Shown here one piece after another: positions 1 through 35,463 of a DNA stretch of 64,000 nt (positions are counted from its first letter, which is position 1; every line of letters starts with the position of its first letter). The notes beneath the pieces are model-generated. The model was not told the DNA's origin and ran no database searches. It worked only from the letters and a program-made list of their open reading frames with translations. The translations under genes and the position numbers were made by a program. The stretch is from Psychrobium sp. MM17-31 (GTDB lineage: Bacteria; Pseudomonadota; Gammaproteobacteria; Enterobacterales; Psychrobiaceae). The stretch is from the NCBI RefSeq assembly GCF_022347785.1, contig NZ_JAKRGA010000005.1, positions 163,519-227,518 on the forward strand, in the 5' to 3' direction.

Positions 1-882
1 TTGCTTGGTGCCAAATGGAGGGTTAGCCAAAATTAGACTGGCTTTGGGAAGAGTTTTTCCCTCATTAGATAAGGTATCTCCGAATAAAACGCCTGCACTC
101 TCATCATCAATAGCTAAATCGTGTAGCATCAGATTCATCATCGCTAGTCGGCGAGTATCAGACACAAGCTCCATTCCATGAAAAGTCTTATGTTGATAAT
201 TGTCATAATCCTCCTCATCTAATCCTGCAACATCAAAATTGTCTTCCATATATTGATGAGCTGCGATTAGAAAGCCACCTGTTCCGGCTGTCGGATCAAC
301 TATCACATCGCCCGCTTGTTTATTTCTTTTATCTTTTGGGGTTGGCTTCATAAGCTCAACCATAATTTCTATCAATACGCGTGGGGTGAAGTATTGTCCT
401 GCACCAGATTTTTTCTCACTAGCATTAATTTCCAGCAAGCCTTCGTACATATCCCCTAAACCTTCGGCTTTGGCACTGTACCAATCAAGTTTATCTATCT
501 GAGTGACCAGTTTTTCTAAAGTGGTTGGCTTGCGAATTACAGTTGTGGCGTTAGCATAAATGGCTTTGGTGATAACGGTTCCATTAGATCCCAGATGAAT
601 CAATAACTTTTTGTATTCATCTAATCTCGAAACATTGTTATAACCTTTTAAATTTTTCCATCTATACCCTTCAGGTATGTTAGGTTCCTTTCTCTTTTCT
701 CCGTCTTTTAACTTTCGTGTTTTCTCGTGCTCTGTGCGTCCGTCCTCAGTATCAGTTTCTTCTGCCATTTTAAGAAAAATCAAATAAGTGAGTTCATTAA
801 GATATTCATGATAAGTAATACCATCATCACGTAGGAGGTTACATAGGTTCCAGAGTTTATTGATTAAATCTTGCGTACTCAT
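1..882 (-). CDS. hsdM: Type I restriction-modification DNA methyltransferase subunit HsdM, N-terminal 294 codons (gene continues beyond window start)
   Basis: The reverse complement from the ATG at 882-880 reads in frame to position 1 (MSTQDLINKLWNLCNLLRDDG...). It contains the SAM-binding motif DPTAGTGGFL and the catalytic NPPFG motif of N6-adenine methyltransferases. It is absent from the ORF track because it is open-ended. Confidence 0.85.
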   Translation of the reverse strand, partial: MSTQDLINKLWNLCNLLRDDGITYHEYLNELTYLIFLKMAEETDTEDGRTEHEKTRKLKDGEKRKEPNIPEGYRWKNLKGYNNVSRLDEYKKLLIHLGSNGTVITKAIYANATTVIRKPTTLEKLVTQIDKLDWYSAKAEGLGDMYEGLLEINASEKKSGAGQYFTPRVLIEIMVELMKPTPKDKRNKQAGDVIVDPTAGTGGFLIAAHQYMEDNFDVAGLDEEDYDNYQHKTFHGMELVSDTRRLAMMNLMLHDLAIDDESAGVLFGDTLSNEGKTLPKASLILANPPFGTKQ

Positions 883-963
883 TTAGTTTCTCTAATTTTA
901 ATTCTTTTGGGTGGATTCAGACTTTACGCTCAAACCACATAATAATGCCCTCATTATATATTG

Positions 964-3900
964 TTAGGCTGAATGCTGTTGTTCGTCTTGTAACCAAACT
1001 GCTTTGTTGAACTGGCCCAATATATCACTTACGGGTTCCTCAAATAGCTTAGTTGCTCGTTTCAAGCCGCCTAATCTCTGCTTGAAAATCCCTTCATTTA
1101 AATTGGACTCATCAACAATGATGTTGGCTTTCATTTGTGCAGCTATAGTTTCAAGCCACTCTCGTTGTGGCGTTTTCCACGGTTGGCTAGAAAGTATCTT
1201 ATCAAATGCTCTATCGACTCGTTTATCATAAGGCTCTAACGCTTCGCCAATAGCGGCTTGACGTATATGACCAATGATTCGAGCAGCGATATCTTCGTTT
1301 TTAACTTCTTTCCAAGCTTCTTTTAAGTCTTGCTCACGGAATTCATTTTTCTCTAGCTCTAAGGCCAGCTCTTTAAGGCTATCGCGTGTGAGTTCCCAAG
1401 GACGCTGAATTACGGTCTGGATGGCGACCATTCGGTTGCTGTTGGCATTCACAAAACTGGAAAAGGCTGTTAAATAATCCTCTGGCTTTTGACCGCTGCC
1501 ATAACCTGTAGATGTACCTGTGACTTCATCTTCATGAGAGGAGATCACAACGGTGTTGCCACCTCCACCTGTACCAGATACTTTCATATCAAGTAATTCA
1601 CCTAAACCAGGGTGACTCACAAACCAATCGGCAACGTCCGTCAACTTCATGCTTTTCAGCTCTTGAGCAAACTCTTTTGGTGGTTTACCAACAATGCGCT
1701 CAAAGTCTGAGTTTTGGTGCGGTGATAGATAATTCTTCTTGCTTTGTAGCTTGGCAAGGAACTGGTCTTTCGCAAGCTGTTGCAGTTTAGGATCTGAACT
1801 ACCTGTGATTTCAGTTTCTAACTCTGTGAAAGTGATATCTACCTTGGTGACAACGGGTTTCATGCTGTTGACCTTTTCTAACTGTTTGTAGATATCTACG
1901 GCATCAAAAATACGGAAACGCTCTTTGGCGATGTCATCACAACGGCGAGTTGCACGGCCAAGCATTTGTTCAAACAAAATACGGCTGTTTACTCGACGTA
2001 AAAATACAAGATTACATATAGATGGAACGTCTACTCCTGTAGTTAATAAATCTACAGTAACGGCTATATTGGGGAGTCGATCATTTTTGTAACGGCGAAT
2101 TTTTTCTAATGGCTTATCTGACGCACCCGTGATTTTTTGAATGGCATCATCTTCCACCTCACCGTGGTAGTTTTCACACGCATCTTTGAGAGCTTCGACT
2201 ACTTCATCAGCATGTTTGTCGGTTACACAGAATATCAGTGATTTTTCTGGTGAGTACGGGTTAAGCGAATCGCTTTCGATTAACCATTTACATACTTCCT
2301 TAGTAAATTCGGGGGCAATTACCTTACGGTTAAACTGAGAAACATCGAAACTAAGTTCATCTGGCGTATTTACTAAATCAATTTGCTGAGTCTGTGGATC
2401 GTATACTTGCACAGGCTCATTCATTGCGTATTTAATACCATCGGTATTCAGCTTGGTGTGAATTCGTGTCGGTGGTAAATGATCAACAAGGTGACCATCA
2501 ATAACCGCCTCAGTGTAAGAGTAGGTAAACACAGGATCACCAAAGATATCTTTGGTATGAAGTGCAGGTGTTGCAGTTAATCCTACCTTAAAGGCATCAA
2601 AATATTCGATAACCGCTCGGTACTTAGACATGTAATCTTTTTGATCACGGAATTTCACTTCGGTTTCACTTAGTTCACGATCAAGTAGGTAACCCCTATG
2701 ACATTCATCAACAACAATACAATCGTACTGACCAACACCTGGTTTAGCTCCGTTATCTGACGGGTACATAATGCGTTTTACTAAACCTTGTACGGTAGCA
2801 ACATGAACTTTGGTATCGTCTTCTGGATTAGGTTTTGGCGCTTTTTCTGGTTCGATGCCTAATACTTCAAACGTGTCGGCAAAGGTGTTGAGGTTTTCCA
2901 TACGAACCTCACCAAAATCAACAGTCGCTTGAACACCTAATGCGCTTCTATCAACTAAAAAGAGAATTCGGCGAAAACGTTCTGCTTTTAATAAGCGATA
3001 GACTAAAGCAATACAGGTTTTGGTTTTCCCTGTGCCTGTTGCCATAGCCACCATAGCTTTGTCTTTACCATCCTTAATGGCTTGTTCTACACTTAAAATC
3101 GCTTTCTTCTGGTAATCCCGAAGTTTAAGTTCGTAATCAAAGCTCATGTCATCAAGCTCTGCATTGGCTTGTTGCGGAGTTTGGCGCAAATAAGTTTTGA
3201 TTTCTTGTGGAGAATACCAGCCTTTGAGCGTCTTACGGCGATTTGTATTATCACGAACATCTAAAAACCAGATGCCGCTTTCTTGTTCTAATTGTTTTAA
3301 GTAAGCACGACCATTAGTGGCAAAAGTAAGAGGGGTATTAAACTCACCATATTGAGTTACTTCTACGTCTTCAGGGAGGTTCTCAATACCTCTGGCATAT
3401 CGTTTAGCTTGATCAATAGCGCCATATACATTTTTAGCATTCTTCTTGGCTTCAATAACCCCCACAAGAGTCATACCAATAAACAGAGCATAATCAGCAG
3501 GCCCAGATTCTGTAGGCCATTCAGCTATTGCCTTATTTTTATTTGGCTCAGGTCTAGAACCTGGTATTTTTTTACCATTAATAATTCTATCAGCATGTCT
3601 AATATTTACAGTGTCTGCTTCCCAACCTGCATCTACTAATTGCTGATCTATGATGACACGTGTTTCAGCTTCATCCATCTCAAATAAAGACTTCTCGATA
3701 CGCTTGAGTTCTGCGGCTTGTTCTTCTTTGGGTTTGGCTTGGAATGTAGCTTTATACAGAATATTTGCTTCATCCATTTTTGCTCTATATTCTGCTAGTT
3801 TAGCTTCATGCTCTTCTGCAACTCGTTCCCATGCGGCTTTATCAGCTGACATTTTCTCAGCACGCTCACGCTCTGCTTTGGCTTTTTCAGCTTCTATTTG

Positions 3901-27374: not shown

Positions 27375-28309
27375 AAAATAGTCTCTCCTGCTAACTTTTT
27401 CTGGGCAAACTGCCCACGCTCTCTCACCGATGGTGCTGAGTCACCTACTAACTTGGTGATAAAAACTTGAGCTTCGTTTCCTAAAATATCGAGCTCGCGG
27501 ATCACTGTTTGCGCGATAACCCGACGGACAATACTCGATTTATCCTCTAGTCCCAGATGCAATAACTCAATTAGCGGTGTTTTCACTGAGATATCACGCG
27601 ACTCATAACAAGGCTCAACAATAATATTGCGATAATAATCTTTACTCACAATTAGATTAGAGCCAGAGCGCCAACGCACTTTTCGCTCTAGTAAGCAGCG
27701 ATAAGCCATAGCCCGTAGCGAAGGTACAACCGCAGACTGTGCTATTGCTAACAGCGAGTCGTCAATTGCAGTCCGCGCCATCAACTGACTCAAAATAAGA
27801 GTCTGCGGGCCACTAGTCGCGGTCGTTAAACGCTCAACAATCATAGGTAAAAACCTAACATCAGCAGCTATGTCACGGAGCAAGTTACGATCTTCATCTT
27901 CTATTCTTTGCCATGAACTCCAATGATTTAACGCATAAAACAGCGCTTCAACGACCTCTTGTGGCCGAGAACTTTCAACAACAGTAGTAATTACCTTTCT
28001 TGTCGCACAGCGTACTTGCGGTACCCAATCGTTAAGGCGGCGCAGTAATACCACCAAAAAGAATGCATTAGGTGCACCGCTATCCAAAGCCAAGATCGAC
28101 TTTTCACGTTGATAGCCACTCCATGAACACAAATTTAACCAATCTTTTTCAACCGACTCGCGACGCCAAAACTTCCAACTTGCAGCTGACTGGAGCGCAC
28201 TATCATTATCTACTTGATAACGTAGTTCACGCTCCCAATGATCGATATTATTCAGTGGTCGAGAGCCGTAAGTTGTTATGACATCACTGAGTACCCTAAC
28301 TTCACTCAT
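27371..28309 (-). CDS. Hypothetical alpha-helical repeat (HEAT/ARM-like) protein
   Basis: The 312-aa ORF is Leu/Ala-rich and amphipathic with repeat-like periodicity. It has 8-nt and 4-nt overlaps with its neighbours. Confidence 0.4.
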   Translation of the reverse strand: MSEVRVLSDVITTYGSRPLNNIDHWERELRYQVDNDSALQSAASWKFWRRESVEKDWLNLCSWSGYQREKSILALDSGAPNAFFLVVLLRRLNDWVPQVRCATRKVITTVVESSRPQEVVEALFYALNHWSSWQRIEDEDRNLLRDIAADVRFLPMIVERLTTATSGPQTLILSQLMARTAIDDSLLAIAQSAVVPSLRAMAYRCLLERKVRWRSGSNLIVSKDYYRNIIVEPCYESRDISVKTPLIELLHLGLEDKSSIVRRVIAQTVIRELDILGNEAQVFITKLVGDSAPSVRERGQFAQKKLAGETIF

Positions 28310-29138
28310 ATTTAGTAATCACCTCTCTAAACAACTGATTCAACAGATCAAAATCAGTAGTTTCATTGTGTTTAGGCGCACTAAAATCGGCGTGACGATC
28401 CAGCTCTTGCTCAATAAATCTGTTAATTACTGGCACAGCATCGATTAACTCTTTTTCGAGACTTTGGCGCTTGCGGGCAAGTAAGTCTTCGATGGCATTA
28501 TTGAGCTGGACATCATCAGCAATTAACACACGTAGCTTTTCAAACTCGATAGGCGCTGGTGAGTCGTATTGCTCCAACCAACGAATCGCCAATAGCGGTC
28601 GTAATACGTAAAAGTATTTTTTAAGCGGCACTTTAACGCCTTTCAAATACTCGCGGTAATTTCCTTTCGCCATATGCAGATAATGGTAAATTCCCTTGTG
28701 ACTCGCCACAACAGTGGGCATTAATTCGCGCACTGCGTTGGCAAAGTGTTGATCGTCGACATAAACAATAGGTGATTGAATCCATTCGATAAAAGCAGGA
28801 TTCGATTTCCAAAAGAGTTTAAGTGCCTTACGCAAATCCCAGCCATTGATATCTATTTCGTCAACAATTGGATACTCGATGACATCACGCTTGTCTTCAA
28901 CATCGAGTGACATATACCAGTCGCGTTGTTGTACATAGACAAAACGCACATCATAGTCGCTGTTTGGGCTAGAGAATCCCCATGCTCGACTGCCTGATTC
29001 TACGGCGAATAACACTTTAACGTTGTGCTCATGTTCCGCAGCGCGAATACGGCGCAAGATTTCAAAGCGTACTTCATCTGCGATGACTTCAGTTTCATTC
29101 ACCGTTAATACGTCATTTCTTTCTTCAAGTTCACTCAT
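28302..29138 (-). CDS. Pol-beta-superfamily nucleotidyltransferase
   Basis: The GS-X10-DxD motif is present (ESGSRAWGFSSPNSDYDVRF). The start overlaps the rtcA stop by 4 nt. Confidence 0.6.
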   Translation of the reverse strand: MSELEERNDVLTVNETEVIADEVRFEILRRIRAAEHEHNVKVLFAVESGSRAWGFSSPNSDYDVRFVYVQQRDWYMSLDVEDKRDVIEYPIVDEIDINGWDLRKALKLFWKSNPAFIEWIQSPIVYVDDQHFANAVRELMPTVVASHKGIYHYLHMAKGNYREYLKGVKVPLKKYFYVLRPLLAIRWLEQYDSPAPIEFEKLRVLIADDVQLNNAIEDLLARKRQSLEKELIDAVPVINRFIEQELDRHADFSAPKHNETTDFDLLNQLFREVITKYE

Positions 29139-30169
29139 GTCTGCTGCACCTCAATGTGATATAAGCTTTCGTTTTCCTGCGTTATCATAAAGTTAAGTTC
29201 TAAAAACTGCTTAATGACGTCGATATTCGTCGTTGTATGTAAACTTGGTTTAGTCGTTGTAAAACAGCCGCTTTGTGCTAATGCCAATGGCAACAAAAGT
29301 TGATCAGCTAAATGCTCCTCAACCGCCGCGTATGAAGCAATAAAATCACGAGCTCGTTTCGCGGCACCGTTAGCGACACGCTCAGCGGACACACCAACGC
29401 GACCAACTTCTTCAAACATAATGCTATTGTGTTCTGCTGCTATCGCCACTTGAAAACTATTACCAGGGGCTGGCGAGTCAACGTGTAAAAGCTCACCGTG
29501 AACATCTTGCCACGCCAAGGTTTCTTTCGCCGCAGCGATTTCTCGTACACCAATTTTATGAGCTAATTTACACATTAGCGCAGTCAGCGAACAACGCCGT
29601 TGTTGAGCGCTAAACTCAGCGCCAGCACTAGTTAGTTCAAGTGGTTTTAGTACGCGTGTCGGCTCAATAGTTATTGACCACTTGCCGCCACCAGCAGGAT
29701 AAAAACCATAGCGTTCAACACGCACTTGCGTCTTTACACCCATCTGCTCAAGCAAAGGTAAAAACGATTGCTGTAAAAAACTCAGTGACGGCGATTTACC
29801 ATTATGTGTGCCGCCTTCAAAGGTCACTGTCGAGGGTTTATCGGCGAAAGCCAGCGCCAACAAAATGGTTTGGCACACCAAGACAGTGCTGCCAGCGCTA
29901 CCAATGGCAAAATGATAGTCTCCGGCAGTAATTTTTCCCGGCACAAACTCGACGCTTTGAGAGCCAAGCTGCGCACCTGTAACTTGTCCATTAGTGATTT
30001 GCTGAGCCGCCAACACCGCAGTGAGATGTTGACGCAGTAATCCCGGCTTATTGCGCTTGGCGCGAATATTAATAAGCTTGAGTGGCTGGCCCGTCAGCAT
30101 AGCTAATGTTAGCGATGTTCTCAGTACTTGGCCGCCGCCTTCACCCATAGCGCCATCAATAGTTATCAT
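29135..30169 (-). CDS. rtcA: RNA 3'-terminal phosphate cyclase
   Basis: The 344-aa ORF begins IDGAMGEGGGQVLRTSL...KPGLLRQHLTAV and is collinear with E. coli RtcA. Confidence 0.9.
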   Translation of the reverse strand: MITIDGAMGEGGGQVLRTSLTLAMLTGQPLKLINIRAKRNKPGLLRQHLTAVLAAQQITNGQVTGAQLGSQSVEFVPGKITAGDYHFAIGSAGSTVLVCQTILLALAFADKPSTVTFEGGTHNGKSPSLSFLQQSFLPLLEQMGVKTQVRVERYGFYPAGGGKWSITIEPTRVLKPLELTSAGAEFSAQQRRCSLTALMCKLAHKIGVREIAAAKETLAWQDVHGELLHVDSPAPGNSFQVAIAAEHNSIMFEEVGRVGVSAERVANGAAKRARDFIASYAAVEEHLADQLLLPLALAQSGCFTTTKPSLHTTTNIDVIKQFLELNFMITQENESLYHIEVQQT

Positions 30170-30179
30170 CTTGATTACC

Positions 30180-31406
30180 TTATCCTTTTACACATACTAC
30201 TTGTTTTAGCGTGTAGACGACTTCCACTAAATCACTTTGCGCTGCCATCACCTTGTCGATGTCTTTATAGGCGTGAGGGATCTCATCGATAACTGCTGCG
30301 TCTTTACGACATTCGACCCCCTGCGTCGCCGCGATTTGATCATCGATGTTATAGACCTTTTTCGCCTTAGTACGCGACATTACGCGCCCAGCGCCGTGAC
30401 TACAACTGTTGAAACTCTCTGGATTTCCCAAGCCGCGAACGATAAACGAACACGCCCCCATGCTGCCGGGAATTATCCCCATTTCGCCTTTTTCTGCGCG
30501 CACTGCCCCTTTGCGAGTGACATAGCAATCTCTACCGAAATGACGCTCGCGCGAAATATAGTTATGGTGACAATTCACCGCTAATTCTGCGGCTTCAAAT
30601 GGCACAGGCATTTCTTTACGCAACGCAGCAATGGCATTCATCATCATAATTTCGCGATTTTTAGCCGCAAAGTCTTGCGCCCATTCCACCGCTTCAACGT
30701 AATCATCAAAGTATTCGCTACCTTCTTCAAGGTAGGCCAAGTCTTTGTCGGGTAAGTTGCGTTGATGACGCTCCATTTCTTTTTTGGCTAGCTCAATAAA
30801 ATAAGTTCCGATGCGGTTACCCACCCCGCGACTTCCCGAGTGCAGCATGATCCACACAGCATCGTTTTCATCTAAACAAAGCTCTAAAAAGTGATTCCCC
30901 GTCCCCATGGTCCCCAAGTGATTAACGTGATTACTCTTGCGAATTGCTGGGTGCTTTTGACAAATCAACTCGAAACGCTGCTCTAACTTTTTCCATTCGT
31001 GAGCAACAATCTCGGGAATGTTATGCCAAGCACCGCGATCACGACGGCCACCTCGCCCGCCAGTTCGGCCATGAGGAACAGCGGCCTCAAAAGCGTGACG
31101 GATCGCCGATAAATTATCTGGCAACTGACTCGCGGACAGCGTGGTTTTAGTGGCCACCATACCGCATCCAATATCGACACCAACCGCCGCTGGAATTACC
31201 GCATCTACCGACGGAATGACACTACCAATAGTTGCGCCTTTTCCTAAATGAACGTCGGGCATTACCGCAATATGCGAATGCACTATCGGCATCGACGCAA
31301 TATTGTGAAGCTGTTGCTTCGCTTCCTGCTCAAACGGCACCCCCTTGGTCCATGCCTTGATTGGCACATGGCCTTTATTTTCGATTGTGTTGTAATTTCC
31401 ACACAT
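30180..31406 (-). CDS. rtcB: RNA-splicing ligase RtcB (E. coli type)
   Basis: The 408-aa ORF is collinear with E. coli RtcB, including MPDVHLGKG, the HFGRDCYVTRKGAV motif, the HGAGR motif and the C-terminal ...LKQVVCVKG. Confidence 0.95.
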   Translation of the reverse strand: MCGNYNTIENKGHVPIKAWTKGVPFEQEAKQQLHNIASMPIVHSHIAVMPDVHLGKGATIGSVIPSVDAVIPAAVGVDIGCGMVATKTTLSASQLPDNLSAIRHAFEAAVPHGRTGGRGGRRDRGAWHNIPEIVAHEWKKLEQRFELICQKHPAIRKSNHVNHLGTMGTGNHFLELCLDENDAVWIMLHSGSRGVGNRIGTYFIELAKKEMERHQRNLPDKDLAYLEEGSEYFDDYVEAVEWAQDFAAKNREIMMMNAIAALRKEMPVPFEAAELAVNCHHNYISRERHFGRDCYVTRKGAVRAEKGEMGIIPGSMGACSFIVRGLGNPESFNSCSHGAGRVMSRTKAKKVYNIDDQIAATQGVECRKDAAVIDEIPHAYKDIDKVMAAQSDLVEVVYTLKQVVCVKG

Positions 31407-31420
31407 AATTTTTTCCTTGC

Positions 31421-32581
31421 CTAATCTGCGATTTTTACGACGTTATTCATTAATCCTTCTAGGCCGCCGTAAACCGTTAGGGAATCTATTTTGTCTGCCA
31501 CTTTTTCTAACGCTTCCAACTCTTTCAAGCGCATTAAAGTTGGGTTGTTTTCCATCACCTTAGCGGTATTGTGCAAGCTGCGCGTCGCCGATGTTTCTTC
31601 ACGGCGTTTGATGACATTGGCTTCTGCGGCTTTCTGCGCTTCTACCACCTGATTTAAAATCGCCTTCATTTCACCAGGTAAAATAATGTCTTTAACGCCA
31701 ACGCTCACCAAGCTAATGCCTAAATTGAGCAGACGCTGAGTAACCAGCTCTTTGACTGTTTCGTTGACATACAACTTATCGATTAAGATATCGTCTAGCG
31801 TTTTAGTACCTACCGCTTCACGCAATGCCAATTGCAGCGTTTTATAAACAAAGTCATCGACTTTATCGACGCTTTTCGCCGCTAAGGCTGCGTTTGTAAT
31901 ACGAATATTAGCGCTCAGATTAATGCGTAAGCTAACGCGATCTTTACTTAGAATCTCTTGGCCAGAAATATCCAATACTTGCTCACGACAATCGAATAAG
32001 CGCACGTCAATTACATCATTAAACTGCCAGTAGCCATATTGACCTGCGGTCAATTCACGCACCAATTCGCCGTTAATGTACAGCAACCCAAGATGATTGT
32101 TAGGTACGCTAATTTGTGCCACCGGCTGCACCGCAACTGTGCTATTACTGCGGATCAATCGACTCGCTATATTAGCACCCGCGCGATTAATAGCTCGCAG
32201 TGTTTTATTATCTACCGCAATGTCGTCCGTTAATGACACACGTTCAATCCGAATATCACCAGCAGCCTGCCAGAAGTAAGCATTTTCGTTTGGCGCAATT
32301 ACACCAAGCAACATATCGTTTAGATACATTAAACCCACTTCATCTTCCGCCACTTTTTGATGACCGACGTGCTGGCGAAGCAGTTCATAATCATTGTACA
32401 AACGCTCTGTGCTATTACCTGTAAAGAACACATCGTTAATGTCTGCTAATTCAAAAGTTAGTTCGTTTTTCACATCCCAAAGCGTGTGCTTGCCCGTCGC
32501 CAAAACATCAATCAACTTTTGATTTTTAAATACTAATACACGTTCATTTTCATTAATTGTTAATTTTTTTCTAAACATCAT
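31421..32581 (-). CDS. SPFH/Band-7 (stomatin/flotillin-like) domain protein, first gene of the rtc operon
   Basis: It has an SPFH-like core and a C-terminal coiled coil. The track ORF extends to 32617, but an AAGGA SD precedes the internal ATG (MMFRKK...), so the start at 32581 is preferred. No N-terminal TM is present. Confidence 0.7.
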   Translation of the reverse strand: MMFRKKLTINENERVLVFKNQKLIDVLATGKHTLWDVKNELTFELADINDVFFTGNSTERLYNDYELLRQHVGHQKVAEDEVGLMYLNDMLLGVIAPNENAYFWQAAGDIRIERVSLTDDIAVDNKTLRAINRAGANIASRLIRSNSTVAVQPVAQISVPNNHLGLLYINGELVRELTAGQYGYWQFNDVIDVRLFDCREQVLDISGQEILSKDRVSLRINLSANIRITNAALAAKSVDKVDDFVYKTLQLALREAVGTKTLDDILIDKLYVNETVKELVTQRLLNLGISLVSVGVKDIILPGEMKAILNQVVEAQKAAEANVIKRREETSATRSLHNTAKVMENNPTLMRLKELEALEKVADKIDSLTVYGGLEGLMNNVVKIAD

Positions 32582-32766
32582 TTTATTCCTTTTTCTGGCT
32601 ATCCCTTTGGATAGCATTAGTAAGGGTTAATTACTTAAATCAATCACGGCCCGTTCGTTATTGAGACTGGGGAGCGTCCTGCTTGCCAGCTTCAATCTTC
32701 GATTAGCGGTGGTTGTTTAGCGGCAACAACGGCTTACTAATTTTTTAAATGTATCTAGTAATCTAA

Positions 32767-32787
32767 TGGTGGGTATCGAACCCACAG
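32767..32787 (-). ncRNA. Isolated tRNA T-arm-like hairpin (GTGGGTTCGATACCCAC-CA), third partial tRNA-like unit
   Basis: The reverse complement reads CTGTGGGTTCGATACCCACCA. No D or anticodon arm is attached to it. Confidence 0.4.
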
Positions 32788-32815
32788 CACTTCTGCTTAC
32801 CGTTTTTAGTTTGGA

Positions 32816-32889
32816 AACTTAGAGTGGGAATCGAACCCACAACCAACGAATTAATAGTTCGCTGCTCTATCCAATTGAGCTATCTAGTT
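32816..32889 (-). ncRNA. Degenerate tRNA-like element, unit 2 (D-arm TAGCTCAATTGGATAGAGCA, T-arm GTGGGTTCGATTCCCAC)
   Basis: The reverse complement has canonical D and T arms. The acceptor stem has 2 mismatches (AACTAGA/TCTAAGT). The anticodon loop CUAUUAA would give A34, which is non-canonical. Confidence 0.5.
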
Positions 32890-32958
32890 TTAAGGAGGGA
32901 CTCGAACCCCCAACAGCCAATTCCTATAATTGGTGCTCTACCATTGAGCTACTTAATG
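32887..32958 (-). ncRNA. Degenerate tRNA-like element, unit 1 (D-arm TAGCTCAATGGTAGAGCA, T-arm GGGGGTTCGAGTCCCTCC)
   Basis: The D and T arms are canonical. The acceptor pairs at 5 of 7 positions. The anticodon loop lacks U33. The unit overlaps unit 2 by 3 nt. Confidence 0.5.
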
Positions 32959-33046
32959 TTTATCTATTGAGGCATACACAGTTGCATCGCTCAGTGCACC
33001 GAGGTGATTTTTGAATCACACTCTGATCAAATAGATACCTAGTAAT

Positions 33047-33062
33047 ATCAAGTGATGTGCCA
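33047..33062 (-). promoter_or_regulatory. Candidate sigma54 (-24/-12) promoter reading leftward into the tRNA-like elements and the rtc operon
   Basis: The minus strand reads TTGGCAC-ATCAC-TTGAT. TGGCAC is a perfect -24 element. The -12 element reads TTGA rather than TTGC. It is correctly placed relative to divergent rtcR. Confidence 0.35.
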
Positions 33063-33179
33063 ACCACATTTCAAATGTCAAAAAATCTTGTAACCAGTTG
33101 ATAATTAGATAAATAAAATATTTAAAGGCATTCATCTGCAAATTTAGATTGCACACAAAACACCATTAAAATATCCTTT

Positions 33180-33212: not shown

Positions 33213-34817
33213 ATGAATAAGAAGACGGTTGTCGTAAGCTTAATTGGAACGCAACTCGATTACGTCGGCAAAGGTAGTGCGCGCTGGTCGCGCTGGCGTC
33301 CGAATGTCAGTTTATGTAGTCAGGAAGACTTGATTGTCGACGAACTGCATCTTATTCACGACAATCGGAGTAGCCGCTTGGCTAACAATGTTGCGGTCGA
33401 TATTGAATCGGTATCGCCAGAAACGACCACCAGCCTGCATAACGTGCGATTTGAAGATCCGTGGGACTTCGAAGAGGTTTACGCCAAACTCTACGACTGG
33501 TGTCATCAACAAACTTTTGATACCGACCACAACGATTACCTGTTTCACATTACTACGGGTACTCACGTGGTACAGATCTGTAGTTATTTACTAACAGAGA
33601 GCCGCCATTTTCCGGGACGCTTAATTCAAACCTCTCCCGATCACCACAATCCGAATAGATCGATTGGCCGCACTCATATTATCGATTTAGATCTATCGAA
33701 GTATGATCAAATCGCCAGCCGATTCGACATTGAACATCAAACTGGCAAAGATTTCCTAAAAGGTGGTATTGCTACAAAAAACAAAGCTTTCAATGAGTTA
33801 ATCAGCCAAGTTGAGAAAGTTGCCATTCGTTCGACGGCACCAATATTACTCACGGGCCCAACAGGCGCCGGTAAGAGTCAGCTAGCAACGCGTATCTTTC
33901 AGCTCAAAAAAATGCGTGAATTGGTTTCAGGTTCCTTGGTTTCAGTAAACTGTGCCACTCTAAAGGGCGAAAATGCGATGGCGGCGTTATTCGGGCATAC
34001 CAAAGGCGCGTTTACCGGCGCGCAAAAAGCTCGCGACGGATTCTTATTAAGTGCCAACAACGGCGTACTGTTTCTAGATGAAATCGGCGAACTAGGCCTC
34101 GAAGAGCAAGCGATGCTGTTACACGCCATTGAAAACAAGAGTTTTTATCCGGTGGGTAGCGACGTGGCGGTGACTAGTAATTTCCAGCTGATTGCTGGTA
34201 CTAATCGCCAACTAAAACAAGAAATCGCCGCAGGTAAATTTCGCGAAGATTTATTAGCGCGGATTAACCTATGGACTTATCAGCTGCCAGCATTGCGCGA
34301 GCGCAAAGAAGATATTCCCGCTAACATCGATTACGAAATCGATTTATACGCCCAAACCAATGGCCAACGCGTCCAATTTAACAAAGAAGCACAGCAGCGT
34401 TTTCTCAAGTTCGCCCAGTCATCAGAAGCGTTGTGGACAGGCAACTTCCGCGATCTCAGTTCAGCTATTACTCGCATGTGTACGCTAGCCGATTCATCGC
34501 GTATCACCATCGATGATGTTAACGCCGAAATAGCGCGCTTAAGCCAAGCATGGCAACCTTCTGAAGTATCTAACAATAATGATATTTTGCTGAACTATTT
34601 CAATTCCGAACAAATCGCCGCTCTTGATAGTTTCGACGCTAACCAGCTAGCGTTCGTGCTACAACGCTGCCAAGACCACAATTCGATGGCCTCAGCTGGG
34701 CGAGAGCTATTTAACGTTAGTCGTACCAGCAAGGTGCAAGTTAATGATTCGAGTCGATTACAAAAATACCTGGCTAAGTTTGGCTTGAAGTGGAAAGATA
34801 TAGATGCGCGAAGATAG
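33213..34817 (+). CDS. rtcR: Sigma54-dependent transcriptional activator RtcR (CARF-AAA+-HTH)
   Basis: The 534-aa ORF is collinear with E. coli RtcR. It has N-terminal VVSLIGTQLDYVGKGSARWSRWRP, Walker A (GPTGAGKS), the GAFTGA sigma54-contact loop and a C-terminal HTH. Confidence 0.95.
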   Translation: MNKKTVVVSLIGTQLDYVGKGSARWSRWRPNVSLCSQEDLIVDELHLIHDNRSSRLANNVAVDIESVSPETTTSLHNVRFEDPWDFEEVYAKLYDWCHQQTFDTDHNDYLFHITTGTHVVQICSYLLTESRHFPGRLIQTSPDHHNPNRSIGRTHIIDLDLSKYDQIASRFDIEHQTGKDFLKGGIATKNKAFNELISQVEKVAIRSTAPILLTGPTGAGKSQLATRIFQLKKMRELVSGSLVSVNCATLKGENAMAALFGHTKGAFTGAQKARDGFLLSANNGVLFLDEIGELGLEEQAMLLHAIENKSFYPVGSDVAVTSNFQLIAGTNRQLKQEIAAGKFREDLLARINLWTYQLPALRERKEDIPANIDYEIDLYAQTNGQRVQFNKEAQQRFLKFAQSSEALWTGNFRDLSSAITRMCTLADSSRITIDDVNAEIARLSQAWQPSEVSNNNDILLNYFNSEQIAALDSFDANQLAFVLQRCQDHNSMASAGRELFNVSRTSKVQVNDSSRLQKYLAKFGLKWKDIDARR

Positions 34818-35386: not shown

Positions 35387-35463
35387 GGCCCGTTAGCATA
35401 ATTGGTTAATGCACTCGCCTCATAAGCGAGCCGATGGCAGTTCAAATCTGCCACGGGCCACCA
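35387..35463 (+). tRNA. tRNA with CAU anticodon (Met, or Ile2/lysidine type)
   Basis: The sequence is GGCCCGT...ACGGGCC-A-CCA, 77 nt. The anticodon stem-loop is CTCGC-CTCATAA-GCGAG. The T-arm is GGCAGTTCAAATCTGCC. The acceptor end resembles E. coli tRNA-Ile2. Confidence 0.85.

Follow-up and report, generated by a model that had tools for sequence, protein, structure and literature searches.

Fused tRNA-like RNA modules upstream of a Band-7/SPFH gene in an RNA repair operon of Psychrobium sp. MM17-31

tRNA-shaped RNAs of RtcB operons

RtcB operons are widespread, and the locus analysed here bears on the question of how they recognise and process damaged tRNA. The closest described relative of the RNA analysed below is b7a-tRNA ('band-7-associated tRNA'), a predicted non-coding RNA (ncRNA) that is strongly tRNA-like and is encoded beside a Band-7 protein and RtcB, as summarised in a preprint (Wang et al., bioRxiv 10.1101/312249) that cites the original prediction (Burroughs and Aravind 2016, Nucleic Acids Res 2016;44:8525). 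According to the same preprint, b7a-tRNA occasionally lies next to Rsr instead, is likely redundant with YrlA, and was an unvalidated prediction as of 2018; this 2018 preprint was all that our literature search for later work on the class returned.

The locus described here lies in a 64,000-nucleotide stretch of the Psychrobium sp. MM17-31 genome (hereafter, the window) and consists of a slipin-RtcB-RtcA-RlaP operon with a divergent gene for RtcR and, in front of the slipin gene, two tRNA-like units (Table 1). The traits published for b7a-tRNA recur in it: the units resemble tRNA (46 and 55 bits against the Rfam tRNA family, with cloverleaf covariation), they are adjacent to a Band-7/SPFH gene, as in nearly all of 80 related loci, and they belong to an RtcB-centred RNA repair cluster. 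By these traits the units are members of the class predicted by Burroughs and Aravind (2016), an assignment made to the published description rather than to the authors' alignment; Rfam has no family for b7a-tRNA. All three elements of that description, a predicted tRNA-like ncRNA, a place next to Band-7 and RtcB, and the proposed redundancy with YrlA, apply here. Unlike the class as described, the window has a fused dimer and a stray T-arm, flanked on the 5' side by a near-universal three-way junction and on the 3' side by a domain specific to one clade, a comparison for which the flanks of the 2016 examples are known second-hand. The literature searched, in which the 2016 paper is represented second-hand, yielded no description of the flanking 5' and 3' modules, the fused-dimer form or the vault-like build of the slipin. 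The novelty of the locus is in such details (flanking modules, fused dimer, neutrally evolving loop, vault-like slipin) and not in kind.

Three other systems offer partial parallels. With YrlA and Ro60 (Rsr) of the rsr-yrlBA-rtcBA operons (RF02553), the locus shares a mimic of the tRNA elbow, formed by D-arm and T-arm, whose acceptor end is disabled and which is set in an RtcR-controlled RNA repair operon beside a putative scaffold protein. The order of YrlA is, however, permuted (T-arm, closed acceptor-like hairpin, D-arm) within a long Ro60-binding 5'/3' stem, whereas the units of the window are complete, unpermuted cloverleaves, with no such stem and no Ro60 gene nearby. The 'L-arrays', tRNA arrays that in cyanobacteria share their regulation with rtcB and a slipin gene (PMC8421152, PMC10272220), likewise yield tRNA-shaped transcripts, whose induction accompanies that of RtcB when translation or tRNA is under stress, and such arrays lie directly upstream of the b7a-type RNA in some relatives of the window; their members are mostly canonical, CCA-ended and aminoacylated, in contrast to the degenerate units of the window, which could not be matured into two normal tRNAs. 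Finally, the slipin, as modelled, resembles the vault particle in its soluble SPFH fold, N-terminal beta repeats and long C-terminal helix, with a small structured RNA encoded beside it. This likeness to the putative partner protein is structural and modest, and vault RNAs are not tRNA-like cloverleaves.

The leader and genes of the rtc operon

Table 1. Features of the rtc locus, in window coordinates
Feature	Position	Strand	Evidence or description
RtcR, sigma54 activator with CARF domain, divergent	33213..34817	+	Pfam RtcR 4.1e-80, Sigma54_activat 6.4e-47
sigma54 -24/-12 promoter TTGGCACATCACTTGA	33048..33063	-	sequence motif; expected transcription start about 33037
5' RNA module, three-way junction	32961..33037	-	alignment, RNAalifold, pair counts, model R2
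5' module, helix P0	33037-33027 with 32970-32961	-	closing helix
5' module, hairpin Pa	33019-33004	-	
5' module, hairpin Pb	32999-32974	-	invariant G.U pairs
tRNA-like unit 1	32890..32956	-	5-bp acceptor stem, anticodon loop UAUAGGA with A33, D-arm and T-arm intact
tRNA-like unit 2, slipin-proximal type	32816..32889	-	acceptor stem with 5/7 pairs, loop CUAUUAA, 'anticodon' AUU, without CCA
Strain-level insertion, about 45 nt, with lone T-arm (32785-32769)	about 32747..32790	-	alignment with near relatives
3' structured domain, 126 nt	32616..32741	-	RNAalifold and pair counts (alignment A2)
3' domain, closing helix P1	32741-32729 with 32627-16	-	
3' domain, apical hairpin	32691-32665	-	near-invariant GCAAGCNGGAYGCUCCC
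Small variable hairpin before the ribosome-binding site	32598..32615	-	without terminator after it
Ribosome-binding site AAGGA	32591-32587	-	
Soluble Band-7/SPFH (slipin) protein, 386 aa, first operon gene	31421..32581	-	Pfam Band_7 3.6e-28
RtcB RNA ligase	30180..31406	-	Pfam RtcB 7.8e-127
RtcA RNA 3'-phosphate cyclase	29135..30169	-	Pfam RTC 3.7e-80
RlaP nucleotidyltransferase	28302..29138	-	Pfam RlaP 1.5e-88
Two ORFs, 312 and 279 aa, overlapping the operon end	27371-28309; 26535-27374	-	no Pfam or NCBIfam match

An earlier, sequence-only reading of the window had reported tandem degenerate tRNA-like elements between rtcR and the rtc operon, and this observation is confirmed with small corrections. 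The minus strand contains the D-arms and T-arms, which read as it gave them. Searched over the whole 64-kb window, unit 1 scores 46.3 bits (E=1e-6) and unit 2 scores 55.3 bits (E=3.5e-9) against the Rfam tRNA family (RF00005, threshold 29 bits); ARAGORN reports the two as 'tRNA-Leu tag' (32958-32887) and 'tRNA-Asn att' (32890-32812), and unit 2 reaches 77.1 bits against R1, a covariance model that we built from 62 units of related loci. The units are directly fused with no spacer, neither is followed by CCA, and the end of unit 2 is separated from the start of the Band_7 gene by 235 nt. Imperfect acceptor stems, another element of that reading, were borne out, with 5 of 7 pairs in each unit. 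Its description of both anticodon loops as lacking U33 and carrying A34 needs amending: U33 is missing from unit 1, which has A33, but present in unit 2, and A34 is found in unit 2.

A third, isolated T-arm ending in CCA had been counted as half a unit of the array. The T-arm exists, and is a copy of that of unit 2 (16/17 identical), but the apparent CCA is the final C of the T-stem plus CA, and the acceptor stem is absent. The insertion that carries it is found in the window and in one (L082) of three near relatives recovered from metagenomes and is missing from the other two (L081 and L083), so that this stretch is not conserved. We therefore rule out a conserved half unit, the T-arm being an indel among near-identical strains.

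As had been proposed, the units sit between the sigma54 promoter and the first operon gene and are predicted to be transcribed as part of the operon leader: the promoter abuts the 5' module, and no terminator was found between the RNA and the slipin gene. The leader, of about 450 nt, comprises in order the sigma54/RtcR promoter, the 5' module, the two fused units, the T-arm insertion and the 3' domain, followed by the Band-7/SPFH gene. In 29 of the 31 loci that share the window's gene order, the sigma54 motif precedes the 5' module by about 20-30 nt; L009 and L010, which our regular expression missed, carry GTGGCAC.

The two modules flanking the units match no Rfam family. The 5' module, with the consensus (A)GCGG-hairpin-CYGGYGCRC...GYGUAURCC, has 95% of its cells paired compared to 77% in shuffles, with U-A/C-G swaps of 25:16 (alignment A4, RNAalifold). 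Its helix P0 occupies a fixed position, is formed by many different sequences and covaries in relatives, which rules out the long-range helix that the single-sequence fold had offered between the transcript's 5' end and the stretch following the T-arm insertion. A covariance model of the module (R2) finds exactly one match per locus in 76 of the 80 loci and in the window, on the correct strand and just before the units, and since the matches include operons in which the module follows rtcA, it is best read as RNA and not as promoter DNA. The 3' domain shows double changes at 28 of 31 pairs, a value reached by none of 500 shuffles, and is reproduced by the single-sequence fold; its model (R3) matches only in 30 gammaproteobacterial loci and in the window. 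About 25 nt separate the end of this domain from the ribosome-binding site, which is unpaired in the predicted fold. This and the lack of a terminator weakly disfavour a translational riboswitch or attenuator.

The first operon gene, unrecognised as Band-7 in the sequence-only reading, encodes a slipin in which no transmembrane segment is predicted. Its AlphaFold model (AF2, pLDDT 75.5) consists of N-terminal beta-strand repeats, an SPFH domain and a long helix. In Foldseek, the model matches stomatin, prohibitin and HflK/C with E-values of 1e-13 to 1e-9, and its longest alignments are those with the major vault protein (445-469 columns, TM 0.44-0.48), which is its best match when the full length is considered, from the beta repeats through the SPFH shoulder to the long helix. 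All characterised SPFH proteins assemble into large ring or cage oligomers, and it is therefore plausible that this slipin acts as an RNA-carrying scaffold.

Several further observations concern other genes of the window. The nucleotidyltransferase of the operon is RlaP, an enzyme that extends damaged RNA ends by one or two nucleotides (PMC12776372). Only one of the two ORFs overlapping the operon end (27371-28309) has a detectable relative, in a single locus (L007, 41%). A second RtcB paralogue (22943-24106, plus strand) is followed by a 206-aa protein with an RF-1 domain (24106-24726, plus strand), which together look like an RtcB-PrfH ribosome rescue and repair pair, so that the window holds two separate RNA repair modules, with about 2 kb between them. 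A 193-aa ORF (25042-25623, plus strand) with a weak match to Proteasome-subunit (PF00227) occupies the interval from the PrfH-like gene to the rtc operon's end. Just past the 3' end of rtcR, a canonical tRNA-Met gene (CAT, 67.6 bits; 35387-35463, plus strand) is found, and tRNA-Met occupies the same relative position in two Pseudoalteromonas loci (L003 1528-1604, L014 1438-1514); this tRNA gene may mark an insertion site of the rtc cluster.

Linkage to the slipin gene and selection on the units

An alignment of slipin homologues gave 80 species-level genomic loci, which were thus picked through the protein, from Alteromonadales, Vibrionales, other Gammaproteobacteria, Betaproteobacteria and single MAGs of Myxococcota, Binatia and Eisenbacteria. 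ARAGORN detects same-strand tRNA-like genes just 5' of slipin in 62 of these loci, many of them with 2- or 4-nt 'anticodons', and the covariance model finds tRNA-like units upstream of slipin in nearly all 80. In 76 of the 80 genomes, the 5' module and 1-3 tRNA-like units directly precede the Band-7/slipin gene, with one T-arm between module and gene in 31 loci, two in 39 and three in 6. Because the arrangement recurs in these 76 genomes with strong covariation, it is not a chance match, and the tRNA look-alikes are, on this comparative evidence, true and conserved modules of a predicted ncRNA.

Gene orders were established by tblastn with the window's proteins. The order RtcR<>RNA-slipin-RtcB-RtcA prevails in L001-L031 and the order RtcR<>RtcB-RtcA-RNA-slipin in L037, L040-42, L044, L056 and L080, while 24 of the 80 loci have no RtcB or RtcR within 4 kb. 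Directly 5' of slipin is where the RNA lies in every gene order, including all 24 loci with no nearby rtcB or rtcR. These gene orders show that the invariant pair is the RNA plus slipin, with a genetic tie to the SPFH gene and not to the promoter or rtcB. The sequence-only reading had named the HEAT-like protein, the nucleotidyltransferase and RtcB as candidate partners, none of which is favoured by synteny; as the RNA precedes slipin wherever rtcB and rtcR lie, the partner that it missed is likely to be the first operon gene. Synteny of this kind speaks to linkage, and a physical interaction between RNA and slipin would be a separate matter.

The census also brought several observations on individual loci. 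L073 (5194-6321), which has no rtcB or rtcR within 4 kb, carries a gene for an AAA-type ATPase after slipin. In the Pseudoalteromonas luteoviolacea group (L018-L024 and L029), the slipin gene has a 5' extension of about 150 codons, and a single tRNA-like unit is present, with an identical stem, an anticodon loop of 5-9 nt depending on the strain, and ACCA at its end. The 5' module is immediately preceded, on its own strand, by an array of 5-17 canonical tRNA genes with encoded CCA in L049, L054, L064, L068, L077, L078, L032 and L072, and a further array is found in L107 (reverse complement, 868-3083); in some loci, the array is placed between rtcB and the RNA. With His, Asn, Asp, Lys, Glu and Arg anticodons common among them, these arrays resemble the rtcB-linked L-arrays of cyanobacteria. 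No slipin relatives were found in viral contigs. A reverse census of metagenomes by DNA pattern used a pattern that was too loose, with one of the 80 loci returned being a true 5' module.

A covariation analysis, which the earlier reading had called for, strongly supports the cloverleaf and the conservation of its D-arm and T-arm features. Across the 62 aligned units, 92.8% of cells are paired compared to 68% in shuffles and 33-45% with a slid partner, and double-change cells number 328 against 92 expected. Invariant or nearly so are the nucleotides that make up the elbow and core of a tRNA, among them U8, A14, G18/G19 and G46 and, in the T-loop, U54, U55, C56 and A58. The acceptor end behaves otherwise, with pair 1:72 unpaired in 29 of 61 units and pair 2:71 in 16 of 62. 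At the loci with upstream arrays, the true tRNAs provide an internal reference: a 7-bp acceptor stem is found in 14 of 87 slipin-proximal units as against 31 of 37 array tRNAs, an encoded CCA in 17 of 87 as against 33 of 37, and a 7-nt loop with U33 and R37 in 31 of 87 as against 31 of 37. Loop lengths of the slipin-proximal units range from 5 to 10 nt.

Comparison with one of the near relatives (L083) separates the parts of the unit more finely. Between the two loci, divergence amounts to 50% at silent sites and to 30% in the leader outside the units, whereas the unit bodies differ at 2/66 and 2/64 positions (about 3%) and the unit-2 anticodon loop at 3/7. The unit-2 'anticodon' triplet differs even between strains whose slipin proteins are 96-97% identical. 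The divergence pattern shows a unit body held by strong purifying selection and an anticodon loop free to drift at an approximately neutral rate. Diversifying selection on the loop is unsupported, as 3/7 differences are in line with the silent-site divergence of 26-50%. With a constrained body and a loop evolving at about the neutral rate, decoding is excluded.

Against the canonical standard, both units exceed the tRNA gathering score, but neither has a 7-bp acceptor stem or processable ends, or a 7-nt loop that combines U33, a purine at 37 and a conserved anticodon. Genuine tRNAs are ruled out by the acceptor stems, the loops, the spacing and the non-conserved anticodons, and these features show the units to be tRNA mimics that, judged by their predicted folds, could not act as normal tRNAs; on this point the sequence-only reading was right.

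Its suggestion of a Y-RNA-like leader of the YrlA type did not hold up. Of the Rfam comparisons that it proposed, that with tRNA places both units above the gathering score, whereas the YrlA model (RF02553), in a permissive search, gives 31.2 bits against a gathering threshold of 69 over 32936-32837 (E=9e-5 in a 661-nt search). The match covers the T-arm of unit 1 and the D-arm of unit 2 and includes a long stem with many non-canonical pairs; the long 5'/3' stem that encloses the T-arm, closed hairpin and D-arm of YrlA is lacking, each anticodon arm forming its own hairpin. Chen et al. 2014 (PMC4201824) take a position within about 4 kb of a Ro60 gene as a criterion for YrlA and warn that dimeric tRNAs give YrlA false positives. 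No Ro60 (TROVE) gene lies within about 4 kb of the units, and none is found among the 14 neighbouring ORFs scanned from 22.9 to 38.3 kb, four of which have no Pfam match, in agreement with the absence of Ro60 noted earlier. As the sub-threshold match is this known artefact of two adjacent tRNAs, the units are not YrlA, and membership in that family is ruled out.

Candidate functions of the tRNA mimics

In the model that we favour, and consider somewhat more probable than all others together, the RNA would be a ribonucleoprotein cofactor for Rtc repair, with the conserved tRNA elbow as the part that is read. Damage to tRNA would activate RtcR, so that the RNA is made together with the SPFH protein. 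The RNA, perhaps cut out of the leader, would bind the SPFH protein to form a ribonucleoprotein scaffold, on which its tRNA-shaped modules could dock the repair enzymes RtcB, RtcA and RlaP, or broken tRNAs. A comparable pairing in other rtc operons would be that of Ro60 with YrlA, itself a tRNA-like RNA. The neutral loop and the conserved elbow indicate where on the mimic recognition probably takes place. A more specific form of the proposal, drawn from the modelled slipin, is doubtful though conceivable: the composite RNA of about 450 nt and the soluble, vault-like SPFH protein might form a cage-like ribonucleoprotein dedicated to tRNA repair, which, if true, would give bacteria a counterpart of vault/vault-RNA or Ro/Y-RNA particles.

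The rival that fares best, although we regard it as unlikely, is a purely cis-acting leader, in which the folds are signals for RNase P/RNase Z processing or for stabilisation, the flanks are regulatory, and the whole sets the maturation, stability or translation of the slipin mRNA with no RNA acting in trans. It would account for the position of the RNA, which always occupies the 5' UTR or the intercistronic space directly before slipin, with no terminator and with the 3' domain ending close to the ribosome-binding site, and it has a precedent in the M. smegmatis YrlA, which is cleavable by RNase P (PMC4201824). The unpaired state of the ribosome-binding site in the predicted fold nonetheless argues against translational control, and the conservation of tertiary-core nucleotides and of 1-3 whole cloverleaves across phyla, with about 3% divergence, exceeds what a processing signal would need. 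Acceptor stems of 5 bp, moreover, are poor RNase P substrates. It also fits poorly that the 3' domain is clade-specific, yet the 5' module and the units are near-universal.

Rather improbable as well is a decoy or sensor, in which the mimics soak up tRNA-cutting toxins, or their cut fragments, ending in cyclic phosphate, boost induction via the CARF domain of RtcR. tRNA fragments with a cyclic phosphate end do activate RtcR, and a role as competitive nuclease inhibitor has been proposed for YrlA (PMC7790460); a sponge role has likewise been proposed for tRNA-array transcripts co-regulated with rtcB (PMC8421152). The RNA is predicted to lie within an RtcR-controlled transcript, and its anticodon triplet varies widely on an otherwise conserved body, as a decoy might. 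The loop, however, diverges at the neutral rate and not above it, and with 31 of 87 loops canonical and lengths of 5 to 10 nt, the units are a poor fit to nucleases with specificity for particular anticodon loops. A sensor that belongs to the very operon it induces would be scarce before induction, and neither role would account for why the RNA is so strictly linked to the SPFH gene or why its 5' module is conserved.

It is very improbable that the units function as tRNA genes (Leu-UAG and Asn-AUU) and supply spare tRNAs when the repair operon is induced: both ARAGORN and Rfam call them tRNAs above threshold, and genuine arrays lie upstream of the same RNA in some relatives, but the mismatches at 1:72 and 2:71, the missing discriminator, CCA and inter-unit spacer, the A33 of unit 1 and A34 of unit 2, the 'anticodons' that change between close strains, and the strong class-wide contrast to neighbouring true tRNAs all speak against it. 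Equally improbable is a Y RNA of the YrlA type whose Ro60 partner is encoded away from the locus. It has in its favour the weak model match and an rtc operon setting like that of Salmonella, and is opposed by the sub-threshold score with its non-canonical long stem, the known dimeric-tRNA artefact, the local anticodon hairpins that leave no 5'/3' Ro-binding stem, and the lack of a TROVE gene among the neighbours scanned.

In the abstract of their 2016 paper, Burroughs and Aravind reportedly list SPFH/Band-7 and 'a novel tRNA-like molecule' together with Ro/Y RNA as pairings of a scaffold and an RNA. Ro60 and Band-7 are unrelated scaffold proteins, each with its own tRNA-shaped RNA in RtcB operons, a pattern suggesting that bacterial RNA repair generally requires a tRNA mimic. 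The Psychrobium locus offers a compact, sigma54-inducible example with defined RNA boundaries, a covariance model for each module and a clear candidate protein partner, through which the long-standing b7a-tRNA prediction becomes directly testable.
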